Positions 23,578-33,865 of a DNA stretch of 38,624 nt are shown here, one piece after another. Where the stretch lies: positions 1 to 38,624 of the forward strand of contig PETS01000021.1 of assembly GCA_002781265.1 (NCBI GenBank). Direction: 5' to 3'. The notes under the pieces were generated by a model, which was not told where the DNA came from, ran no database searches, and was given only the letters and a program-made list of their open reading frames with translations. A program made the position numbers and the translations under genes. Origin of the DNA: Candidatus Falkowbacteria bacterium CG02_land_8_20_14_3_00_36_14. GTDB taxonomy: Bacteria; Patescibacteriota; Patescibacteriia; Patescibacteriales; UM-FILTER-36-11. How positions within the stretch are numbered: the stretch's first letter is position 1; the number at the start of each line of letters is the position of its first letter.

Positions 23578-24618
23578 ATGTTTACAATAAAATATTTAAA
23601 AATTTATTTAATATTTTTATTATTATTCTTGTTTTTAGCGATCGGTTTAGCTTATGCCGAAGAATTATCAGAAAAGCTGAAAGGCCGGATTTTACTGCAA
23701 ATAGAGTCCCATGGCGAGGCCTGGTATGTTAATCCTGACAGCCAAAAACGGTTTTATCTGGGACGGCCGGCGGACGCTTTTGCCGTGATGCGCGAACAAG
23801 GGCTGGGAGTATCCAATAAGGATTTTGCTTCTTTTAACGGAGTGGCTCCAAAAAGATTAGCCGGAAAAATTTTATTAAAAGTAGAAGCAAACGGCGAGGT
23901 CTATTATGTGAATCCGATTGATTTAAAAATGATATATCTGGGACGGCCGGCGGATGCTTTTGCCGTTATGCGCGAACAGGGGCTGGGCATTACTAATGAA
24001 AATTTAGCTAAAATAAAAATAGATGAAAAATCAAGCCCGATTATTTCCGAAGAAGCAACCGAGATTGTTAAAGAAATTGAAGAAAAACCGGATGAAGAAG
24101 TTGTTGTTGAAACGCCTGAAGAAATCGCCACCGGAACGGAAGAAATAATTATTGATACTCCGGAAGAATCAGCTACTACTACAGAAGAAGTTGTTATAGA
24201 CCTGCCTGCCGGACAGGCAGGAGAAACCGCCGCCACCTCCTGCGTTTGGCTGGCGGAATATTTTAATAATAAGAGTCTTTTCGGCTCGCCATTGGCGACC
24301 AGCAGTGTTGACGAAGTTAATTTTAATTGGGGATCAGGCGGTCCCGAAGGAATAAATAAGATAAATAATTTTTCAGCTCGTTTTACCGCCAATTGTTATT
24401 TTGCCGGAGGAAATTACGAATTTCAGACAAAATTTGATGATGCTATTAGAGTCTATCTTGATAATGAAAATTTTCTTCAGTCGTGGGCTGATAATAATAC
24501 AGCCAAAATTATTAATAGAGAACGCAATATAGAAAAAGGTAATCATGAAGTTAAGGTTGAGTATTACGATGCAGCCAGCAACGCCGTTATTAGCGTGGGC
24601 TGGGTTATGATTAATTAA
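23578..24618 (+). CDS. secreted protein: 2x GxILL..E..GE.YYVNP...YLGRPADAFAVMREQGLG repeats + acidic linker + PA14 domain
   Basis: N-terminal hydrophobic signal. The C-terminus reads WLAEYFNN...NFNWG...FSARF...GNYEF...DDAIRVYLD...GNHEVKVEYY, typical of PA14. Confidence 0.85.
   Translation: MFTIKYLKIYLIFLLLFLFLAIGLAYAEELSEKLKGRILLQIESHGEAWYVNPDSQKRFYLGRPADAFAVMREQGLGVSNKDFASFNGVAPKRLAGKILLKVEANGEVYYVNPIDLKMIYLGRPADAFAVMREQGLGITNENLAKIKIDEKSSPIISEEATEIVKEIEEKPDEEVVVETPEEIATGTEEIIIDTPEESATTTEEVVIDLPAGQAGETAATSCVWLAEYFNNKSLFGSPLATSSVDEVNFNWGSGGPEGINKINNFSARFTANCYFAGGNYEFQTKFDDAIRVYLDNENFLQSWADNNTAKIINRERNIEKGNHEVKVEYYDAASNAVISVGWVMIN
24201..24221. repeat. REP-like perfect hairpin CCTGCCTG-CCGGA-CAGGCAGG embedded in frame in the PA14 gene
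   Basis: It encodes LPAGQAG at the linker/PA14 boundary. Related GCCGGCAGG cores occur at about 29639 and about 32911. Confidence 0.5.
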
Positions 24619-24724: not shown

Positions 24725-25015
24725 ATGAAGAAAATAAGCAAAAAAATAACCATAGATCAATTAGCTGTTACAATGAATAAGTTAGTCGCCACGGTGGATA
24801 ATTTGGCTGTTGCTGTCAAGAAAGGATTTGATTATGTTGACAAAAGGTTTGACGGCGTTGACAAAAGATTTGACGGCGTTGACAAAAGGTTGGATTCTTT
24901 AGAGCGCGGCCATGAGGAAATCAAACTAAAGCTTGACAATGTCGCTTATCGTTTTGAACTGGTGGAGTTGCAGAGAAGGGTTGAAATTTTGGAAAAAAAA
25001 TTGAGCGCGAAATAA
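24725..25015 (+). CDS. small coiled-coil protein with VDKRFDG heptad tandem repeats
   Basis: 96 aa containing YVDKRFDGVDKRFDGVDKRLDSLE. It has its own promoter and terminator. Confidence 0.7.
   Translation: MKKISKKITIDQLAVTMNKLVATVDNLAVAVKKGFDYVDKRFDGVDKRFDGVDKRLDSLERGHEEIKLKLDNVAYRFELVELQRRVEILEKKLSAK
24835..24897 (+). repeat. 3 x 21-nt tandem repeat GTTGACAAAAG(G/A)TTTGACGGC
   Basis: In-frame repeat inside the 96-aa CDS; the third copy is diverged at its 3' end. Confidence 0.8.
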
Positions 25016-25039: not shown

Positions 25040-25068
25040 AAAAGTAACATATGTTACTTTTTTATTAT
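25040..25068 (+). terminator. terminator-like AT-rich hairpin
   Basis: AAAAGTAACA-TA-TGTTACTTTT is a perfect palindrome followed by TTTATTATTT. It ends 3 nt before the next ATG. Confidence 0.5.
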
Positions 25069-25070
25069 TT

Positions 25071-27308
25071 ATGCCGAAAAAAATTTATTTAACAATCTTA
25101 AAATCAGGAATTTATCTTTCTTTTTTATCGGTTTTTTTAGTGTCCGGCAAGCTATTTTTCCCCTACATAACGACCAAGCAGATTTTTTTTAATATTTTAA
25201 CTGAAATATTATTTTTCTTTTGGCTGGTTTTCATAATCCAATATCCATCTTACCGACCGTTCATCTTTGTTAAAGGAGGTCTAAAAAAATCCCTGATTCC
25301 CTTAGGGCTGGTAAGTTTTTTTATTATAATTACCTTAAGCAGTATTTTGGGGGTGGATTTTAATTTAAGTTTTTGGGGCGATGCGGAGAGAATGCTCGGT
25401 GTTTTTCATGTCCTTCATTTTTTAGCTTTTTATTTTATAATAATTACCGTTATGCTAAGCTGGAAGGACTGGTACGCGTTAATGCTCGTTTCCGTAGCCG
25501 CGGCCGCGTTTGTCAGCATCCATGCATTAACGGTAATAGCGTATAGCACGGTGGGTAACGCCGCTTATGTCGGCGGTTATCTGATTTTTAATATATATTT
25601 TAGCTTGATTTTGTTTTTTCGGACCGATAAGAAAATTTTTTGGCGCTGGCTCTATCCGGCGGCGATTATCCTTATGCTGTTTGCTTTGAAGAATACCGGC
25701 GTGGCCGGAGCTTACGTCGGACTGGGTTCCAGCGCAATATTGGCTTTATTTTTATTCGGATTATTGAGTCGGGATAAAAAGGTAAAAATTTATATTTTAT
25801 CCGCCGCTGTTTTATCCATAGTTTTAATAACCGGAATTTTTTTATATAGGAATAATTCTACGGTGAGAAGCGTTAAATTTTTAGATGACGTATTATCGGA
25901 GATTTCCGTGGGAAAAAATACTTTCCAAACCCGGTTAATTTCATGGAAAACCGCCTGGAAGGATTTTCCGGCGCACCCTTTGCTCGGAACCGGCTATGGA
26001 AATTTCGCCATTACCTTTGACAAATATTTTGACCCGAGCTTTTATAACTATACTCGTTCAGAAACTTATTTTGACCGGGCGCATAACAATCTGATTGACA
26101 TTGCTTCCACGTCCGGGGCATTGGGGCTATTGGCTTATTTATCTATTTTTGCCGCCGCCGGTTATTATTTAGTAATCGGATATAGAAAAGATAAAATAAA
26201 ATTACATGATTTTGTTTTATTAATTTCATTAATTATCGCTTATTTTGTGCAAAATTTAGCCGTTTTTGATTCCTTGGTTACTTATATTCCTCTAATGGCG
26301 ATGCTCGGCTATATTTATTGGCTTGCCAGAAATGATCAAGAGATAGATTATATAAAAGATGACTCTTTTAATAATAAGGAAATTTTTGCCGGTTTTTTAA
26401 TTGGATTGTCAGTACTGATAATATTGTTTAAATATAATATCGGGCCTCTGCGGACGTTTATTGGCACGATTAAAGGGCAAATCGCTTTCGCGCAGGGCGA
26501 TATCGCTGGGGGAGTGGAAATATATAAAGGCGCTTTAAGCCGCCATACGGTCCTTGACCGCGACAGCCGCGACAGCTTGGTCCGTTCCATGACTTCGGTC
26601 CTGCTTAATGAGAGCGTAAGCCAAAGTCAATTGGAAGACGTCTTGGCCTTTGTTGAAAAAATGGCGGAAGAGAATATTAAATATAATCCGAAAGACAGCT
26701 TAACCCAGACGGAACTGGCCCAGTTTTTTATTTCCGCCGCGCAAGCCAGTAAAGATGATAACGAAAAATTTTTTTCATACCTTAATCAAGCGATGGAGGC
26801 GGCAAATAAAGCGATAGATTCAAGCCCGGGGAGGATACCTCTTTATTATGTCAAGGCGCAGATTTATAAAATGCGCGGCGACAGCGATAATGCGATTGTG
26901 ACATTGGAATATGCCGCTGGCCTTAATGAAAAATATTATGATAGTTTTTGCAATTTAGCCAAATATTACTTTATGGCGCGAAATGAAGAAAAAGGATTTT
27001 CTGCTATGGATAAATGCATTGATTTGGGCGGCGCGGAATTATTAACGCCGGTTGATTACGTTATAAGTTTAATAAATTTTTATATAGACAAGCAGAATGA
27101 TTGGCCGAGAGTAGTGAAATTATATGAAAGGTTGGTGAAGATGCAGCCGGACCAAGCGGTTAATTGGGTAAAATTAGCGGCGTCTTATGAACGAATTGGC
27201 GAATATGGGGAAGCAATTGAAGCGGCCAGAAAATCCGTTGAACTGGACCCGACCTTAAAAGATGAAGTGGAACAGTTTATTAATGCTTTAGGAAAAATAA
27301 GTTTATAA
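25071..27308 (+). CDS. O-antigen-ligase-like (Wzy_C) polytopic membrane protein with C-terminal TPR domain, paralog 1
   Basis: 745 aa with about 10 or more TM helices, GTGYGNFAITFDKYF, and FDRAHNNLIDIASTSGALGL (Wzy_C-like). The C-terminal ~300 aa is soluble with TPR-like repeats. Confidence 0.88.
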   Translation: MPKKIYLTILKSGIYLSFLSVFLVSGKLFFPYITTKQIFFNILTEILFFFWLVFIIQYPSYRPFIFVKGGLKKSLIPLGLVSFFIIITLSSILGVDFNLSFWGDAERMLGVFHVLHFLAFYFIIITVMLSWKDWYALMLVSVAAAAFVSIHALTVIAYSTVGNAAYVGGYLIFNIYFSLILFFRTDKKIFWRWLYPAAIILMLFALKNTGVAGAYVGLGSSAILALFLFGLLSRDKKVKIYILSAAVLSIVLITGIFLYRNNSTVRSVKFLDDVLSEISVGKNTFQTRLISWKTAWKDFPAHPLLGTGYGNFAITFDKYFDPSFYNYTRSETYFDRAHNNLIDIASTSGALGLLAYLSIFAAAGYYLVIGYRKDKIKLHDFVLLISLIIAYFVQNLAVFDSLVTYIPLMAMLGYIYWLARNDQEIDYIKDDSFNNKEIFAGFLIGLSVLIILFKYNIGPLRTFIGTIKGQIAFAQGDIAGGVEIYKGALSRHTVLDRDSRDSLVRSMTSVLLNESVSQSQLEDVLAFVEKMAEENIKYNPKDSLTQTELAQFFISAAQASKDDNEKFFSYLNQAMEAANKAIDSSPGRIPLYYVKAQIYKMRGDSDNAIVTLEYAAGLNEKYYDSFCNLAKYYFMARNEEKGFSAMDKCIDLGGAELLTPVDYVISLINFYIDKQNDWPRVVKLYERLVKMQPDQAVNWVKLAASYERIGEYGEAIEAARKSVELDPTLKDEVEQFINALGKISL

Positions 27309-27310
27309 TT

Positions 27311-29545
27311 ATGTCGAAAAAAACATACCAATTAATTTTGCAAATTGGAATTTATATTTCTTTTTTATCGGTTTTTTTAGTTTTCAAAAATCTGCTTTTC
27401 CCTTATATTACGTCCAAGCAGATTACTTTTAATATTATCACAGAATTGTTGTTTATTATTTGGGTGGCTTATGTGGTCAAATATCCTTCGGCCCGGCCCC
27501 GGTGGTCGTATATTTCTTTTGGATTAATAGTTTTTTTTCTGGCAGTGCTGGTATCGTGCTTTACGGGTGTTGATTTTAATTTAAGCTTCTGGGGAGACGT
27601 GGAAAGGATGCTTGGATTTTTCCATATTTTTCATTTTTTGCTATTTTATTTTATTATCATTACCGTATTTCGGAAGTGGCCGGACTGGCGAAATTTATTT
27701 ATTGTTTCGGTTTCAGCCGCCGCCTTGATAAGTCTTTACGCGCTGATAAATAATGTGAGCATGAGCACTATCGGCAATACCGCTTATGTGAGCGGTTATC
27801 TGATTTTTAACATCTATTTTTCCTTTATATTGTTTTTTCGGGGAAAAAACTGGCTGATAAAATCTATCTATCCGGTGTTGGCCTTAATAATGCTTCTGGC
27901 TTTTAGAAAAGCCGACACCTCCGGCGCTTATGTCGGTCTGGCTGCCAGCATTCTAGTCTTACTGTCCTTATACTTGATTCTGCATAAAAATAAAAAAATC
28001 AGAATTTACAGCTCGGCTTTTTTATTGATTTTAGTTTTTTCAGTTTCATTTATTTTTTTAAATAAAGAAAGCGCCTTGGTGCAGGGCAATAATTTTTTGA
28101 AAAATACTACCAGGGAAATTTCCTTAAACAAAAATACTTTCCAGACCCGCCTTATTTCCTGGCGCGCCGCATTAAAAGATTTTAAAAATCATCCTATTTT
28201 AGGCACGGGTCATGGAAATTATGCCATTACCTTTGATAAATATTTTGAGCCGAAATTTTATACCTTTACCAGTTCAGAAACCTATTTTGATAGAGCGCAT
28301 AATAATATTATAGATATTGCTTCCACCACCGGCGCTGTCGGCCTTTTAACTTATCTGTCAATTTTTATGGCCGTTGGCTATTATTTAATTTTGGGGTATA
28401 GGCAAGATAAAATAAATATTAATGAATTCGTATTAATTTCTGCTTTAATAACCGCTTATTTTATCCAAAATTTAGCGGTTTTTGATTCCTTGGTTACTTA
28501 TTTGTCTTTGATGGTAGTGTTGGGATTTGTTTATTGGCTAACCAATAAAAATGAAATAGAAGAAATAGAAGAGGAGCATGACCAGCCATTAAACAACCAG
28601 GAGATTTATACTTTTGCTGTTGTCGGATTAATAGTGTTATCCATACTTTACCAATATAATATAAAGCCGTTAAAAATGCTTATCGGCACGATTAAGGCGC
28701 AAATAGTTTTAGCCCAGCCAGGAGGGGATATTATTAGTGTCGTAGATATCCATAAAAAGGCCTTAAGCTATAATACGGTTTTGGACCGCGACAGCCGGAC
28801 TGTTTTAATCCGTTTAATTTCAGGAAATATTAATTCATTAAAAAATATTGGCAGCCAACCAGCCAAAGAAATATTAGATTACGCCATTTCTCTGGCCAGC
28901 GCCAATGTTGATTATAACAAAGAAGACAGCTTAAACCAGCTGATGCTGGCCCAAGCTTATGATACGGCCGCCAGATTCAGCGCGGACGGCAATCAGGATA
29001 CATTTTATCATTATGCCGATCGGGCTTTGGAGGCGGTTAACGAATCAATCGCCGCCAGTCCGGGCAGAGTGACAGTTTATTTTTCCAAAGCGCAGATATT
29101 TATGACCAGGGGAGAAGCGGATAAGGCCATTGATACCTTAAAATACGCGGTAAGCTTGAATGAGGACTATGTTGACAGCCATTGTAATTTAAGCAGATTT
29201 CTTCTTTCCCTGGGACGGGAAGAAGAGGGTTTTCAAGCAATGGATAAATGCATTGATAAAGGCGGAACCGGCAATTTATATCCGGCGCAATATGTAAAAT
29301 TATTAATCAACCATTATGCTGAATTAGAAAGTAAAGCCAATATTGCGAGAGTAATAAAACTTTATGAGCTATTAGCTAATAATTTAGAGCCGAATGATGC
29401 GAAAATATGGGTTAATTTGGCCAGTTTATACGCCCGGGAAGGAAATAAAGATAAAGCCATAGACGCGGCCCGAAAAGCCATTGAATATGATCCGAGCATA
29501 AAAGACGCGGCCGAGGATTTTATAAAAAAATTAGAAGAGTTATAA
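27311..29545 (+). CDS. O-antigen-ligase-like (Wzy_C)-TPR protein, paralog 2
   Basis: 744 aa, collinear with paralog 1 (roughly 55-60% identical by eye over the N-terminus). It starts 2 nt after paralog 1 ends. Confidence 0.88.
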   Translation: MSKKTYQLILQIGIYISFLSVFLVFKNLLFPYITSKQITFNIITELLFIIWVAYVVKYPSARPRWSYISFGLIVFFLAVLVSCFTGVDFNLSFWGDVERMLGFFHIFHFLLFYFIIITVFRKWPDWRNLFIVSVSAAALISLYALINNVSMSTIGNTAYVSGYLIFNIYFSFILFFRGKNWLIKSIYPVLALIMLLAFRKADTSGAYVGLAASILVLLSLYLILHKNKKIRIYSSAFLLILVFSVSFIFLNKESALVQGNNFLKNTTREISLNKNTFQTRLISWRAALKDFKNHPILGTGHGNYAITFDKYFEPKFYTFTSSETYFDRAHNNIIDIASTTGAVGLLTYLSIFMAVGYYLILGYRQDKININEFVLISALITAYFIQNLAVFDSLVTYLSLMVVLGFVYWLTNKNEIEEIEEEHDQPLNNQEIYTFAVVGLIVLSILYQYNIKPLKMLIGTIKAQIVLAQPGGDIISVVDIHKKALSYNTVLDRDSRTVLIRLISGNINSLKNIGSQPAKEILDYAISLASANVDYNKEDSLNQLMLAQAYDTAARFSADGNQDTFYHYADRALEAVNESIAASPGRVTVYFSKAQIFMTRGEADKAIDTLKYAVSLNEDYVDSHCNLSRFLLSLGREEEGFQAMDKCIDKGGTGNLYPAQYVKLLINHYAELESKANIARVIKLYELLANNLEPNDAKIWVNLASLYAREGNKDKAIDAARKAIEYDPSIKDAAEDFIKKLEEL

Positions 29546-29749: not shown

Positions 29750-30883
29750 TTATTTGTTATAAATTTTCAGATATTTTTTAAAAGTTTCTTCCAGGAGAAA
29801 CTTTTTTGATTGATTAAGATTCTTTTCGCCCAAAGAAAGAGATAAATTTTTATCCGTGGCTAATTTTTTAAATTTGGTTAAAAATTCTTTTTTATTATTA
29901 AATTCATAAAGCTGATTCGGTGAATTGTCTAAAATTTCCGCGTTGCCGCCGACAGAGGAAGCCAGTATGGGCGTGCCGGCGAATAAGGATTCAATCAAAG
30001 TTATAGACAGGCCTTCATATCTTGAAGGCAGAACGAATAAATCAAAGCCCTTTAGATATTGGCAGGCGTTGTTGATTTCTCCCAATAAAAATATTTTATC
30101 GGCCAATTTAAGATTGTTTATCATATTTTCAAATTTTTTTCTTTTTTCCCCCGCGCCGATAATCAGCAAAGCCGCCTCGGGTTTTATCTTTAATATTTCC
30201 GGAAAAATATCAATTATAAATTCATAATTTTTGGCCATTACCAGCCGGCCGATAGAGCCGATAAGATATTTATTTTGTATATTTATTTTAAATTTTTTTT
30301 CAAAATAATTTTTAGCATGGCCGGCGGAAAGAAAATTAAGATTTCGGGGTTCAAGGCCGTTAAAAATTATTTTTCCCCCTTTAACAAGTTTAATTTTTTG
30401 TGCTTGGGCTAAATTTTTTCGGCTGATGAAAATCGGTTTGTCAACATAAAGAAGAAGAATTTTAAAAAATAATAGATAAATTATTTTTATTATTTTAGGC
30501 GCCTGGTAATTTTCATCCAAAACGGATAAGCCGTGGAAAGTAAAAATCGTGGTTATATTTTTATTTGCCAGTTTGGCGCCGATTGCCCCCAAGAGGGCAT
30601 TGGCGCTGTTAAAATGGACCGCGCTAAAATTATTATTTTTAAGATAATTTTTTAATTCAAAAATAAAAAATAGATTAGCTAAAGGATTATGGGTTCTTTT
30701 CAGCCATTTGAAATTAAAATATGGAATTGCCGCCGATTTTAATTCATTTTTAAGATAATCTCCGCAGCCATATCCGACAAGGGCTTCTATTTTACATTCT
30801 TTTAATTTTTTTGCTAAATTAAGCACAAAATTTTGCGCTCCGCCGATTTCTCCCTTGGTTATTACTATAAGAATTTTTGGCAT
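29750..30883 (-). CDS. GT4-family glycosyltransferase
   Basis: 377 aa with the EX7E region YEGLSITLIESLFAGTPILASSVGGNAEIL. Confidence 0.9.
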   Translation of the reverse strand: MPKILIVITKGEIGGAQNFVLNLAKKLKECKIEALVGYGCGDYLKNELKSAAIPYFNFKWLKRTHNPLANLFFIFELKNYLKNNNFSAVHFNSANALLGAIGAKLANKNITTIFTFHGLSVLDENYQAPKIIKIIYLLFFKILLLYVDKPIFISRKNLAQAQKIKLVKGGKIIFNGLEPRNLNFLSAGHAKNYFEKKFKINIQNKYLIGSIGRLVMAKNYEFIIDIFPEILKIKPEAALLIIGAGEKRKKFENMINNLKLADKIFLLGEINNACQYLKGFDLFVLPSRYEGLSITLIESLFAGTPILASSVGGNAEILDNSPNQLYEFNNKKEFLTKFKKLATDKNLSLSLGEKNLNQSKKFLLEETFKKYLKIYNK

Positions 30884-30966
30884 AAAAAATTTATAAATTA
30901 TAAGTTGACTTTTACTGTATTTTATTTAATAATAACTTATATAAGCATTAAATTCAAGGTGCAGAC

Positions 30967-30991
30967 AAAACTAAGTAATACTTAGTTTTTT
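30967..30991 (+). terminator. terminator-like hairpin in the leader of the UGDH-like gene
   Basis: AAAACTAAGT-AAT-ACTTAGTTTT plus extra Ts, with no upstream plus-strand gene to terminate. It could be an attenuator element. Confidence 0.3.
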
Positions 30992-31004
30992 ACTATTAAA
31001 TCAA

Positions 31005-31103
31005 GGGTATTCCTTGCAAGGAAGAGTTTGAGAAACCATTGGTTTTTCAAAATAATTAACTGCCTTGAGGATACCTCGCAGTTCTGTTGCGGGGTAATTC
31101 ATT
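31005..31103 (+). repeat. 99-bp repeat, copy A (directly upstream of UGDH-like gene)
   Basis: 95/99 identical to 32798-32896. It contains hairpins TTCCT-TGCA-AGGAA, GAGAAACC-ATT-GGTTTTTC and ACTGC...GAGG-ATA-CCTC-GCAGT. Confidence 0.85.
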
Positions 31104-31112
31104 AAAATAAAA

Positions 31113-32054
31113 ATGATAAAAAAAAATAAAAAAATTGGTTTTATCGGCCAAGGCTGGATCGGCAAGAATTACGCGGATGATTTTGAAACCAGGGGATATA
31201 GCGTGGTTCGCTATGGATTGGAAGAGCCGCATATAAATAATGGAGATAAAATTAAGGAATGCGATATAGTGTTTATTGCGGTTCCCACTCCAACAACCAC
31301 AAAAGGTTTTGATGATAGTATTTTGAGAAGCGCTATAAAAAAAGTAGGAATTAAAAAAACAGCTGTAATTAAGTCAACAATTTTACCCGGAACAACTGAA
31401 AAAATTCAAGAAGAAAATCCTGATATTTATGTACTGCATTCTCCGGAATTTTTAACCGAAGCTACCGCCGCTTATGATGCGGCTCATCCGAATAGAAATA
31501 TTATCGGCGTTCCCATAGATAATGAAGAATATAGAATAAAGGCAGAAGAAGTTTTAAGCGTTCTTCCTCAAGCAAAATATGCAAAAATTTGCAAATCAGA
31601 GGAAGCGGAGCTGATAAAATACGCCGGCAATAATTGGTTTTATTTCAAAGTGATATATATTAATATGCTTTATGATTTGTCTCAGAAAATGGGATGCCGG
31701 TGGGAAGTGATACGGGATGCTATGGCCGGAGATCCGCGCATCGGTTCCAGCCATATGAATCCGGTCCATGAATCCGGTAAAAGCGGAGGCGAAGCCGGAC
31801 GGAAGCTGCCTTTTTACGAGTTTCATTTAGAGCCGGTCCACAAAACCGGCCGAGGCGCCGGCGGCCATTGTTTTATAAAGGATTTCGCCGCTTTCCATAA
31901 ATTATACGAAGAAATGGTGGGCGACGAGAGAGGAATAAAATTATTAGATTCTATGCGCGATAAAAATATTGATTTATTGGTAAATTCCGGAAAAGATTTG
32001 GATTTATTAAAAGGGGTGTATGGCGAGGAAGTTTTTTCTTCTACCGAGCTTTAG
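31113..32054 (+). CDS. UDP-glucose/GDP-mannose dehydrogenase family protein (short form, 313 aa)
   Basis: NAD-binding GFIGQGWIG, VPTP, and the catalytic-Cys motif GGHCFIKD. It lacks the usual C-terminal UDP-sugar-binding domain. Confidence 0.8.
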   Translation: MIKKNKKIGFIGQGWIGKNYADDFETRGYSVVRYGLEEPHINNGDKIKECDIVFIAVPTPTTTKGFDDSILRSAIKKVGIKKTAVIKSTILPGTTEKIQEENPDIYVLHSPEFLTEATAAYDAAHPNRNIIGVPIDNEEYRIKAEEVLSVLPQAKYAKICKSEEAELIKYAGNNWFYFKVIYINMLYDLSQKMGCRWEVIRDAMAGDPRIGSSHMNPVHESGKSGGEAGRKLPFYEFHLEPVHKTGRGAGGHCFIKDFAAFHKLYEEMVGDERGIKLLDSMRDKNIDLLVNSGKDLDLLKGVYGEEVFSSTEL

Positions 32055-32058
32055 CTCA
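32040..32058. repeat. 19-bp inverted repeat, left arm (TCTACCGAGCTTTAGCTCA)
   Basis: Exact reverse complement of 32937-32955. It covers the last 4 sense codons and the TAG stop of the UGDH-like gene. Confidence 0.85.
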
Positions 32059-32064
32059 TGGTTT

Positions 32065-32195
32065 CAGACTGTCCGAAAACTATTTTTTTTGTCATTCCCG
32101 ACTCGATCGGGAATCCAGAAAGGTTTAATATCAGACAAATTATGGATTTCCGCTTTCACAGGAATGACAGTAAAGTGTAGTTTTCGGACAGTCTG
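32065..32195. repeat. 131-nt long hairpin / MITE-like palindromic element
   Basis: The outer 17-bp perfect arms are CAGACTGTCCGAAAACT and AGTTTTCGGACAGTCTG. The inner arms are TGTCATTCC and GGAATGACA, with an internal ATTCCCGA-CTCGA-TCGGGAAT hairpin. Confidence 0.8.
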
Positions 32196-32205
32196 GAATA
32201 TATAT

Positions 32206-32691
32206 ATGCAAAAGCATTATAAGCATCTAAAAGAAGATAGTCCTTATTGGCCGGATAATTCAATCTATTTTTTAATAGATTCTACCTTTATTCATTTCCC
32301 TTATTTCCGGATAGATGAGCAAAAAACAATAGTATTAAATCAAATAAAAAAAATAAAAACGCAGTTAGGAATTCCCATATCCGATTATTGCATATTAACA
32401 AACCATTATCATATAAAATTTTATTTAAAAAATGGTTTGGATTTAAAAAGAGTGAAATAATTATTGCGCGGAGGTATTTCTTTTGAATACAGGAAAAGAT
32501 TTAAATTGCCATATAAAGAAATATGGCAGACTAGAAAAATAATAAGGATTACTTCTGAAAGAATGAATTTTAAAGTTTCAGGATACATTATTGGAAATTT
32601 ATTAAAACATAAGGAAGTAAGTACTTTAAAAGAGTTGAAAGAAAGTGAATTTTCCGATTATTGGTATATGGCTGATAAATATGGGAGATGA
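32206..32691 (+). pseudogene. REP-associated tyrosine transposase (RAYT / IS200-like Y1 transposase) with in-frame TAA
   Basis: HUH motif LTNHYHIKF and the catalytic-Tyr region SGYIIGNLLKH. ORFs 32206-32457 and 32461-32691 share one frame and are separated only by TAA at 32458-32460. Confidence 0.75.
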
Positions 32692-32780
32692 TATTGCCCA
32701 AGAGCTAGTGTATAATGTGATAGATGTTGGTGAAGATATTTGGGGAGCGGTTGATTTAAGACAATTAAATCAAAGTATTT

Positions 32781-32896
32781 CTCGTAGCTCTGCTCCGGGG
32801 TATTCCTTGCAAGGAAGAGTTTGAGAAACCATTGGTTTTTCAAAATAATTAACTACCTTGAGGATACCTCGTAGCTCTGTTGCGGGGTAATCCATT
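32781..32896 (+). repeat. 99-bp repeat copy B (32798-32896), preceded by a 22-nt partial copy of its own 3' end
   Basis: CTCGTAGCTCTG[C/T]T[C/G]CGGGGTA occurs at 32781-32802 and 32868-32889, an 87-nt period. Confidence 0.85.
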
Positions 32897-32936
32897 GAGA
32901 TAAATTATATGCCGGCAGGTTAAAACCTGCTAACCC

Positions 32937-32955
32937 TGAGCTAAAGCTCGGTAGA
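32937..32955. repeat. 19-bp inverted repeat, right arm (TGAGCTAAAGCTCGGTAGA)
   Basis: Reverse complement of 32040-32058, ending 7 nt before the epimerase ATG. It is preceded by the palindrome GCAGGTTAAAACCTGC. Confidence 0.85.
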
Positions 32956-32962
32956 TAAATAT

Positions 32963-33865
32963 ATGGCAAAATGTTTAGTGACCGGTGGAGCCGGGTTTAT
33001 CGGCTCCAATTTAACCGACGTTTTAATAGAGCGCGGAGATAAAGTTATTATTATTGATAATTTGTCCACCGGTAAAAAAGAAAATTTAAATTCTCAAGCA
33101 AGATTTTATGAAAAAGATTTAAGAAATTTAGAAGATATCAAACCGTTATTCAAAGGAGTTGATTATGTTTTTCACGAAGCGGCCTTGGCGCGCGTCCAGC
33201 CGTCAATTATAGATCCGGTTAATTATAATGACCACAATGTCAACGGCACTTTAAACGTATTAGTCGCCGCTAAAGACGCGGGCGTAAAAAAGGTGGTTTA
33301 TGCCGCTTCCTCTTCCGCTTACGGCGATCAGAAAAAAATGCCTTTAACCGAGGATATGCCGGCCAATCCCATCAGCCCTTATGGACTGCAAAAATATATA
33401 GGCGAGGAGTATTGCCGTTTGTTCAGTTATGTTTATAAGCTGCCGACTGTTTGTTTGCGGTATTTTAATGTATTCGGGCCCCATATGGTCAAAGAGGGAG
33501 CTTATGCTTCGGTAGTGGCTATATTTTCCAGCCAGCGTAAAAATAACCAGTCATTAACAATAGTCGGTGACGGGGAGCAATTGCGCACTTATACTTTTGT
33601 TAAAGATATTGCGCGGGCAAATATACTGGCCGCGGAAAGTGGAATAGCGGATGGCCGGCCGATTAATACCGGCCAAAGCAATGAATACAGCGTTAACGAC
33701 ATAGCCAAAATGATCGGCGGTCCGGCCGTTAATATAGAACTGCGCATTGAGCCGCGCCGGAATTTATGCTCTAACGCTTTAGCTAAAAAATTATTAGGAT
33801 GGGAACCGAAAGTCAAACTGCATGAGTGGATAGGAGAATATAAAAAAGAAATAGGAATAAATTAG
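32963..33865 (+). CDS. NAD-dependent nucleotide-sugar epimerase/dehydratase (GalE/UXS-like SDR)
   Basis: GGAGFIGSNL Rossmann motif, SSSAYG, and catalytic YxxxK (YGLQK); 300 aa. Confidence 0.9.
   Translation: MAKCLVTGGAGFIGSNLTDVLIERGDKVIIIDNLSTGKKENLNSQARFYEKDLRNLEDIKPLFKGVDYVFHEAALARVQPSIIDPVNYNDHNVNGTLNVLVAAKDAGVKKVVYAASSSAYGDQKKMPLTEDMPANPISPYGLQKYIGEEYCRLFSYVYKLPTVCLRYFNVFGPHMVKEGAYASVVAIFSSQRKNNQSLTIVGDGEQLRTYTFVKDIARANILAAESGIADGRPINTGQSNEYSVNDIAKMIGGPAVNIELRIEPRRNLCSNALAKKLLGWEPKVKLHEWIGEYKKEIGIN

Follow-up and report, generated by a model that had tools for sequence, protein, structure and literature searches.

Systems made of repetitive extragenic palindromic (REP) sequences and REP-associated tyrosine transposases (RAYTs) are best known from Proteobacteria, and it has been argued that they are long-lived, vertically inherited partners of their hosts. 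Insertion sequences of the IS200/IS605 type carry direct-orientation hairpins at their ends and leave no target duplication. The REPtron, or REP-RAYT arrangement, is documented by the structure of the E. coli enzyme TnpA-REP (PDB 4ER8) and by several studies (Nunvar, 2010, PMC2817692; Di Nocera, 2013, PMC3733652; Bertels, 2017, PMC5581495). By definition a REP carries a conserved terminal tetranucleotide of GTAG type on the 5' side of its hairpin foot (PMC3733652, PMC6006769), and the GTAG tag itself defines the main REP super-family; in TIRtrons, a Y1 gene lies between long inverted repeats of its own (Di Nocera, 2013, PMC3733652). In the literature searched, and within the limits of that literature, no description of REPs or RAYTs in Patescibacteria was found. 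The present analysis concerns a RAYT-family gene and the repeats around it in a 38,624-nt stretch of DNA, hereafter the window, which is contig PETS01000021.1 of the groundwater organism Candidatus Falkowbacteria bacterium CG02_land_8_20_14_3_00_36_14.

The gene lies between two sugar-nucleotide genes, one encoding a UGDH-like protein and the other an NAD-dependent epimerase/dehydratase, and the locus is probably a decayed REP/RAYT system that has gathered two other small mobile elements (Table 1). A sequence-only reading of the same DNA had described a REPtron-like unit, in which a Y1 gene was bracketed by 19-bp inverted repeats, a long hairpin and 99-bp direct repeats. All of these flanking repeats are present at the coordinates given in that reading and stand far above chance, and the direct repeats, the inverted repeat and the hairpin arms have no further occurrence within the window. 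When they were sought elsewhere, as that reading had proposed, all were found in other loci; they are, however, three separate families, namely the REP, a 131-nt element and an element of about 133 nt, and not one bracketed unit.

The identification of the gene as a RAYT-type Y1 gene has held up. A homologue search returned 148 proteins, and the 120 listed are mostly 187-200 aa in length and at most 79% identical; among the few of these with a source name, most are labelled as belonging to the Patescibacteria group. Across 77 sequences the residues N66, H67, Y127 and G130-N131-L132 never vary and H69 hardly does, all of them falling in the NHYH and GYIIGNLLKHKE motifs, and the window copy retains NHYH and GYIIGNLLKH despite its broken frame. 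The Pfam profile Y1_Tnp matches 20 of 22 family members at E <= 0.01, with a best value of 1.9e-6, and a family-profile search of PDB sequences gave nothing useful. An AlphaFold2 model of the intact homologue P0003 (mean pLDDT 90) has as its best solved structure 4ER8_A, the E. coli REP-associated tyrosine transposase in complex with a REP hairpin, with E 5e-8 and a TM-score of 0.72 over 152 columns; the TnpA proteins of ISDra2 and IS608 rank after it. By this modelled fold, together with the HUH motif and the catalytic tyrosine, the window gene is identified as encoding a distant RAYT-type Y1 HUH protein.

The gene is no longer intact. The open reading frame (ORF) reported at 32206-32691 does exist, but in comparison with intact homologues it is part of a longer pseudogene that originally ended at 32923. 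An in-frame TAA at 32458-32460 replaces a Gln conserved in the family (CAA-to-TAA), a net +1 frameshift near 32686 makes the C-terminal third read on in another frame, and a 132-nt insertion, which is a copy of the ~133-nt element, occupies the 3' coding end. When these lesions are undone, an ORF of 194 aa can be read directly from the sequence, ending in ...EINYMPAG with its TAA stop at 32921-32923; this restored stop falls in the loop of the downstream REP hairpin, a layout also seen in locus L069. The population was compared by reading 24 contigs per look-up, including those of the NCBI assemblies GCA_001871205.1 and GCA_002793295.1, and the lesions were found in every contig read. The window RAYT is therefore a dead gene, a pseudogene fixed in its population. 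For annotation, this means that the ORFs separating the UGDH-like gene from the epimerase should be read as pieces of one pseudogene, and that the repeats surrounding it are relics of mobile elements.

The 19-bp inverted repeats were proposed as candidate REPs, with the left one (32040-32058) lying over the UGDH-like stop and the right one (32937-32955) ending 7 nt before the epimerase ATG at 32963, and both coordinates and candidacy were confirmed. The two arms match exactly over 19 nt, and at 96% over a longer span of 24 nt (32040-63 / 32932-55), and none of 100 dinucleotide shuffles produced two matches. The minus-oriented copy supplies the last codons of the UGDH-like gene together with its stop (TAG, 32052-32054). 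At the other end, a palindrome previously listed apart, GCAGGTTAAAACCTGC, forms one composite REP unit with the right-hand repeat: a variable hairpin GCAGGTTAAAACCTGC at 32915-32930, with the ancestral RAYT stop in its loop, a linker TAACCCT, a constant hairpin GAGCTAAAGCTC at 32938-32949 and a tail GGTAGA at 32950-32955.

Aligned matches gave the same composite architecture as a consensus, consisting of a variable hairpin, the linker GAACCC(T), the constant hairpin GAGCTAAAGCTC and the tail GGTAGA. The two sides of the variable hairpin are always complementary (GCGGCTAAAGCCGC, GTGGCTAAAGCCAC, GGAAGTTAAAACTTCC, GGCAGGTTAAAACCTGCC and others), and changes in the stem are compensatory, as in GAGCT/AGCTC to GAACT/AGTTC. 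The tail is invariant within the matches, as GGTAGA or, in L108 and L109, GGTGGA; GTAG lies 3' of the hairpin on the strand that reads GTAG, and the opposite strand carries TCTAC 5' of the foot. A scan for GARCTAAAGYTCGGTAGA in one genome per species returned 93 stretches, of which about 16 were single matches in unrelated taxa, at about chance level, and the rest came from Falkowbacteria and other Patescibacteria. The four richest assemblies hold 34, 12, 12 and 10 exact copies. The first of these, Falkowbacteria SZUA-104, has its copies on about 30 contigs and also bears the RAYT-family gene (L069, L036, L044). The 24-mer of the window REP is found exactly in more than 20 loci, and the window's composite variant has 43-nt matches at 88-93% in two other genomes (L057, L069, L101, L043). 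Most copies (87 of 95) lie outside ORFs. The idea that REPs are placed with the GGTAGA side towards gene starts was rejected, as 24 face starts, 34 face ends and 37 are far from any ORF; those that do face a start cluster 9-17 nt from the ATG. Because the same motif flanks intact homologues and is dispersed in related genomes, the 19-nt inverted repeats of the window are assigned, by sequence comparison, to the RAYT gene as its REPs.

Three other lineages (L108, L109 and L110) show the order minus-strand GT4 gene, UGDH-like gene, intact RAYT homologue of 190-197 aa and epimerase gene, with UGDH-like proteins 71-75% identical to that of the window. REPs are present on both sides of the RAYT in L108 and L109, and in L109 a minus-oriented REP supplies the UGDH stop codon, as in the window. 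Since the slot between the UGDH-like and epimerase genes is kept in these three lineages, its occupation by the RAYT is ancestral and not a recent insertion, so that the earlier description of a unit inserted between two sugar-nucleotide genes, with boundaries still to be defined, no longer applies. Such a conserved slot fits the housekeeping-like, vertical inheritance described for RAYTs (PMC5581495). Elsewhere, intact homologues lie between pheS and pheT (L011), upstream of rmuC (L013) and in Falkowbacteria SZUA-104 (L069, L036). Their REP layout is one minus copy, plus copies just before the start and plus copies overlapping the stop. In all, eight independent loci were compared, and seven of them have inverted REP flanks, namely the window, L011, L013, L069, L036, L108 and L109.

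Several observations weigh against the interpretation as a decayed REP/RAYT system. The eighth locus, L110, keeps the RAYT-family gene without any REPs, and the window itself holds just two REPs, both flanking the pseudogene. The REP counts given above cover relatives, the window's own assemblies being absent from the matches of both collection scans. Both profile scores of the window ORF (stop masked) are below the cut-offs, with 21.7 bits for Pfam Y1_Tnp (cut-off 23) and 33.4 bits for NCBIfam REP_Tyr_transpos (cut-off 80), and the family is a distant branch whose scores fall under curated thresholds. REP binding and cleavage are attributed to this family by analogy, and the movers of the 131-nt and ~133-nt elements are assigned to no enzyme. 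Finally, the RAYT-family gene has moved at times, because it occurs in several different contexts and because some genomes carry two or three divergent paralogues.

This last point bears on the alternative that survives best, that is, an ordinary selfish insertion sequence of the IS200/IS605 type that entered between two genes and then decayed, and not a domesticated RAYT with its REPs. The unrelated contexts of the homologues, which include pheS/pheT, the region upstream of rmuC and a position beside a PP-loop ATPase gene, would suit such an element, as would two to three copies in some genomes. Nevertheless, the same slot is filled in four lineages whose UGDH-like proteins are just about 71-75% identical. 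Paralogues within a genome are divergent: one assembly has two that are 71% identical, another has three, one of them degraded, and near-identical duplicates were not found. The flanking hairpins far outnumber the gene and are dispersed independently of it, they are inverted and do not form direct left-end/right-end pairs, and the best structural match is a RAYT and not the TnpA protein of an insertion sequence. The selfish insertion sequence is thus regarded as unlikely, and a decayed REP/RAYT system is preferred.

The long hairpin upstream of the RAYT start had been taken, together with the 99-bp repeats, for a composite REP of this gene, but each belongs to a dispersed family of its own. 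The hairpin arms (32065-32081 / 32179-32195) are exact over 17 nt and match over 21 nt at 95%, and as single-stranded DNA the 131-nt sequence folds at -35.6 kcal/mol, compared with -13.2 +/- 2.7 for shuffles (z = -8.2). Copies along its whole length, at 94-96%, were found in four metagenome contigs (L118, L119, L133, L136) with no other sequence in common with the window. REPs also occur as inverted doublets, and several genomes of Patescibacteria carry an imperfect palindrome of about 131 nt that encloses two composite REPs in inverted orientation and has the ends CAGACTGTCC(A/G)AAAA ... TTTTNGGACAGTCTG. The window element matches these in termini and length, and its interior is unrelated and contains no REP. 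At the equivalent position, L109 has a second REP hairpin and a Shine-Dalgarno sequence only. Judged by these comparisons, the window hairpin is best described as a discrete element, dispersed and non-autonomous, which has landed in the gap separating the upstream REP from the RAYT start.

The direct repeats proved to be real, although their unit of 99 bp did not stand. The match between 31005-31111 and 32798-32904 covers 107 nt at 94%, with a partial third copy at 32774-32806, and the actual unit, seen in full at 32765-32896, measures neither 87 nor 99 nt but forms an element of about 133 nt. Copy B, the full form, is made of a 5' hairpin, a core palindrome TTGAGAAACC-ATT-GGTTTTTCAA, a 3' hairpin and the end ...TAATCCATT. 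Copy A lies directly upstream of the UGDH-like ATG, and its short form recurs at another locus (L146/L152/L155/L164). A metagenome scan with a 20-mer from the repeat core gave 48 stretches, three of which were chance matches. Matches of 128-141 nt with sharp boundaries and 92-98% identity occur at at least 25 other loci that share no other sequence with the window, and more distant variants occur in other metagenomes. The element has a hairpin at each end, both in direct orientation, with conserved AGCTYKGCT loops and stems that show compensatory changes, and its 23-nt core palindrome, TTGAGAAACC-ATT-GGTTTCTCAA, does not vary; a target duplication was not seen. The two direct repeats are consequently members of a single element family that inserted independently and in the same orientation, copy B within the RAYT, and do not bracket a unit. 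The suggested deletion or duplication of the UGDH-RAYT segment by recombination between them had no representative among the population contigs read. Variation in 30881-33000 amounts to two SNPs (single-nucleotide polymorphisms) and two small indels. The linked SNPs are at 30960 and 30963, and the only length polymorphisms are an AT dinucleotide at 32197, in an (AT)n run separating the 131-nt element from the RAYT start, and one A at 31002, which is the left edge of copy A.

The position of the ~133-nt element relative to genes is strongly biased. Among copies with a nearby ORF, 26 of 32 face the start of a co-oriented gene, and the adjacent genes are functionally unrelated (infC, tgt, RNase J, rpmF, parA, an ATP synthase subunit, signal peptidase). 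Both window copies contain a promoter-like match, TTGAGA-17-AATAAT, so the element may carry an outward promoter; the distant variants, judged by eye, lack the -10-like hexamer at this spacing. It is tempting to see here a new, orientation-biased mobile module of Patescibacteria, apart from REP/RAYT, with the composite double-hairpin REPs forming the first REP/RAYT population to be described in the Candidate Phyla Radiation (CPR), but such a reading is put forward only as a tentative possibility. It is raised because of the direct, covarying end hairpins, the invariant core, the lack of target duplication and the gene-facing bias. If true, the element could be a portable promoter, an operator, a 5' untranslated region (UTR) cassette or a structured RNA, moved by some single-strand HUH enzyme.

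At L137, a Y1 gene of COG1943 type lies 152 nt downstream of one copy. The closest relatives of that gene do not show this adjacency, so it assigns no transposase to the element. The possibility that the element is the REP of this second Y1 family was rejected, since L165 and L168 have private inverted hairpins and no such element. These hairpins lie at 1410-1440 / 2215-2245 in L165 and at 1418-1445 / 2200-2228 in L168, each pair with its own COG1943-type Y1 gene; the family to which these genes belong comprises proteins of about 220 aa and has thousands of members in Patescibacteria. Two further arrangements were observed. In L117 (near 840), L154, L156 and L162, the element stops 64 nt in, the terminus TTTTCGGACAGTCTG directly abuts it and a gene for an IS30-like transposase follows about 100 nt onward, so that an insertion sequence may have landed inside it. 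In L148 (2458-2619), distant variants stand head-to-tail, with the 3' end ...GGAGGTTCAT of one abutting the 5' end CTTGATTATTCC of the next.

As to the origin of the 107-nt direct repeats, it could be argued that they arose through local duplication of a cis-regulatory leader common to two sugar-nucleotide genes and are not mobile at all, as both copies are just upstream of, and co-oriented with, such a gene, fold stably and contain the promoter-like match. This reading is already contradicted by the metagenome scan, in which the same boundaries recur beside unrelated genes. Moreover, the syntenic loci L108-L110 lack both copies, and no Rfam match was obtained at E <= 1 for 30880-33000 (nor any at gathering thresholds for the whole window). 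It is considered very improbable, and independent insertions of a mobile element are retained as the explanation. Weakest of all, and scarcely credible, is the notion of a working REPtron whose RAYT is expressed by read-through or programmed frameshifting and moves every repeat around it, the long hairpin and the 99-bp repeats among them: although every repeat type clusters round the gene and the HUH and Tyr motifs can be read in the broken frame, the gene bears three independent lesions, one of them a 132-nt coding insertion, in all contigs read, its intact relatives are in frame throughout and encode Gln where the stop falls, and loci without a RAYT-family gene also contain the ~133-nt element and the hairpin variant.

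For the decayed REP/RAYT system, the following history can be given. As comparison with the other lineages shows, the operon-like ancestral array was minus-strand GT4, UGDH-like gene, RAYT and epimerase, with the RAYT flanked by its own composite REPs; a minus REP overlapped the UGDH stop, and at least one plus REP overlapped the RAYT stop and reached to within a few bases of the epimerase start. On the model of the E. coli RAYT and the IS200/IS605 enzymes, the intact protein would be a Y1 HUH single-strand DNA endonuclease that binds the constant REP hairpin on single-stranded DNA and cuts beside it, near the GGTAGA tail or at the CAGACTGTCC termini, so that REP doublets of about 131 nt would spread through the genome by copying and the gene itself would not move. 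In this lineage the gene is dead and that activity is lost, and the 131-nt and ~133-nt elements have been inserted. The surviving REPs probably act only as transcript sequence or structure, providing a stop codon and hairpins in intercistronic regions and the 5' UTR.

Table 1. Coordinates in the window of the genes and repeat elements discussed in the text.
Feature	Position	Strand	Details
~133-nt element, copy A, short form	30995..31103	+	ATTAAATCAA / GGGTATTCC...; 5' end hairpin absent
UGDH-like gene, 313 aa	31113..32054	+	UDPG_MGDP_dh N-terminal and central domains; no C-terminal domain
REP, constant hairpin only	32040..32063	-	TCTACC + GAGCTTTAGCTC + ATGGTT
131-nt palindromic element	32065..32195	.	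termini CAGACTGTCCGAAAAC...GTTTTCGGACAGTCTG
RAYT-family pseudogene	32206..32923	+	three lesions relative to intact homologues; original 3' end at 32923
~133-nt element, copy B, full form	32765..32896	+	inside RAYT 3' coding end
Composite REP, 43 nt	32913..32955	+	four parts, given in the text
NAD-dependent sugar epimerase/dehydratase gene	32963..33865	+	conserved downstream neighbour

Regarding the neighbouring genes, the possibility that the UGDH-like gene was cut short by an insertion was rejected. Its homologues measure 283-330 aa and are 64-75% identical, and 313 aa is the native length for this Patescibacteria family. Upstream of it (30905-30992) there are two conserved sequence blocks. 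One is promoter-like, TTGACT-17-AATAAT followed by AACTTATA, and is common to L108, L109 and L110; the other, common to L108 and L109, is a hairpin CTAAGTAATACTTAG followed by a T-run, which looks like a leader attenuator. Farther upstream, two adjacent paralogous genes (25066-27300 and 27311-29545) encode proteins of about 745 aa with Wzy_C (O-antigen ligase-like) and TPR domains and share 71-74% DNA identity across long stretches. The region 23745-24208 and 24821-24894, near a PA14-domain gene, contains 85-nt repeats 180 nt apart, 25-nt repeats with a 45-nt period and three repeats with a 21-nt period holding TTGACAAAAGG; these sets are probably coding or operator-like repeats. A GT2 glycosyltransferase gene beyond the window end is split into two ORFs in most population contigs (L001 18967-19682) and forms a single 238-aa ORF in one (L005 18965-19681), a difference suggestive of a frameshift that is polymorphic within this glycan cluster. 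The window yielded neither a tRNA nor a tmRNA.

On this interpretation, the REP/RAYT partnership would extend to the tiny genomes of Patescibacteria, with a double-hairpin REP that even gives neighbouring genes their stop codons. The same slot is intact in some lineages and dead in this one, which would offer a direct test of REP decay after the loss of a RAYT. Such compact genomes tolerate at least three miniature repeat families in one intergenic stretch, and the ~133-nt element, strongly biased to positions upstream of genes, may affect their expression.

In comparison with the known systems, the TIRtron finds its likeness in L165 and L168, members of the other, larger Patescibacteria Y1 family with their own inverted hairpins, whereas the RAYT family of the window uses a shared, dispersed REP. 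With IS200/IS605 and its miniature derivatives (PATEs), the locus shares the Y1 HUH fold, and the ~133-nt element has similar direct-orientation end hairpins and no target duplication; unlike them, the RAYT family has no identical multi-copy genes (the within-assembly pair at 71%), no tnpB, inverted flanking hairpins and solo repeats that far outnumber the genes. The REPIN (Bertels and Rainey, 2011, PMC3116915) has its architecture repeated in the relatives in which two inverted REPs form an imperfect palindrome of about 131 nt with defined ends and several copies, while the interior of the window hairpin lacks REP hairpins and its copies are known from metagenome contigs only. The closest counterpart is the REPtron. 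The locus departs from it in its Patescibacteria host, in a double-hairpin REP with one variable, covarying stem and one constant stem, in a tag that lies 3' of the hairpin on the GTAG strand, in REPs that overlap the stops of the RAYT and its neighbour, in profile scores below the cut-offs and in the death of the window copy. It resembles the REPtron in a Y1 HUH protein with 4ER8 as the best structural match, in a gene placed between oppositely oriented copies of a short extragenic hairpin repeat, which in relatives is scattered across the genome, in a REP family with a GTAG (or GTGG) tag, and in a gene position conserved across lineages with no near-identical gene copies.

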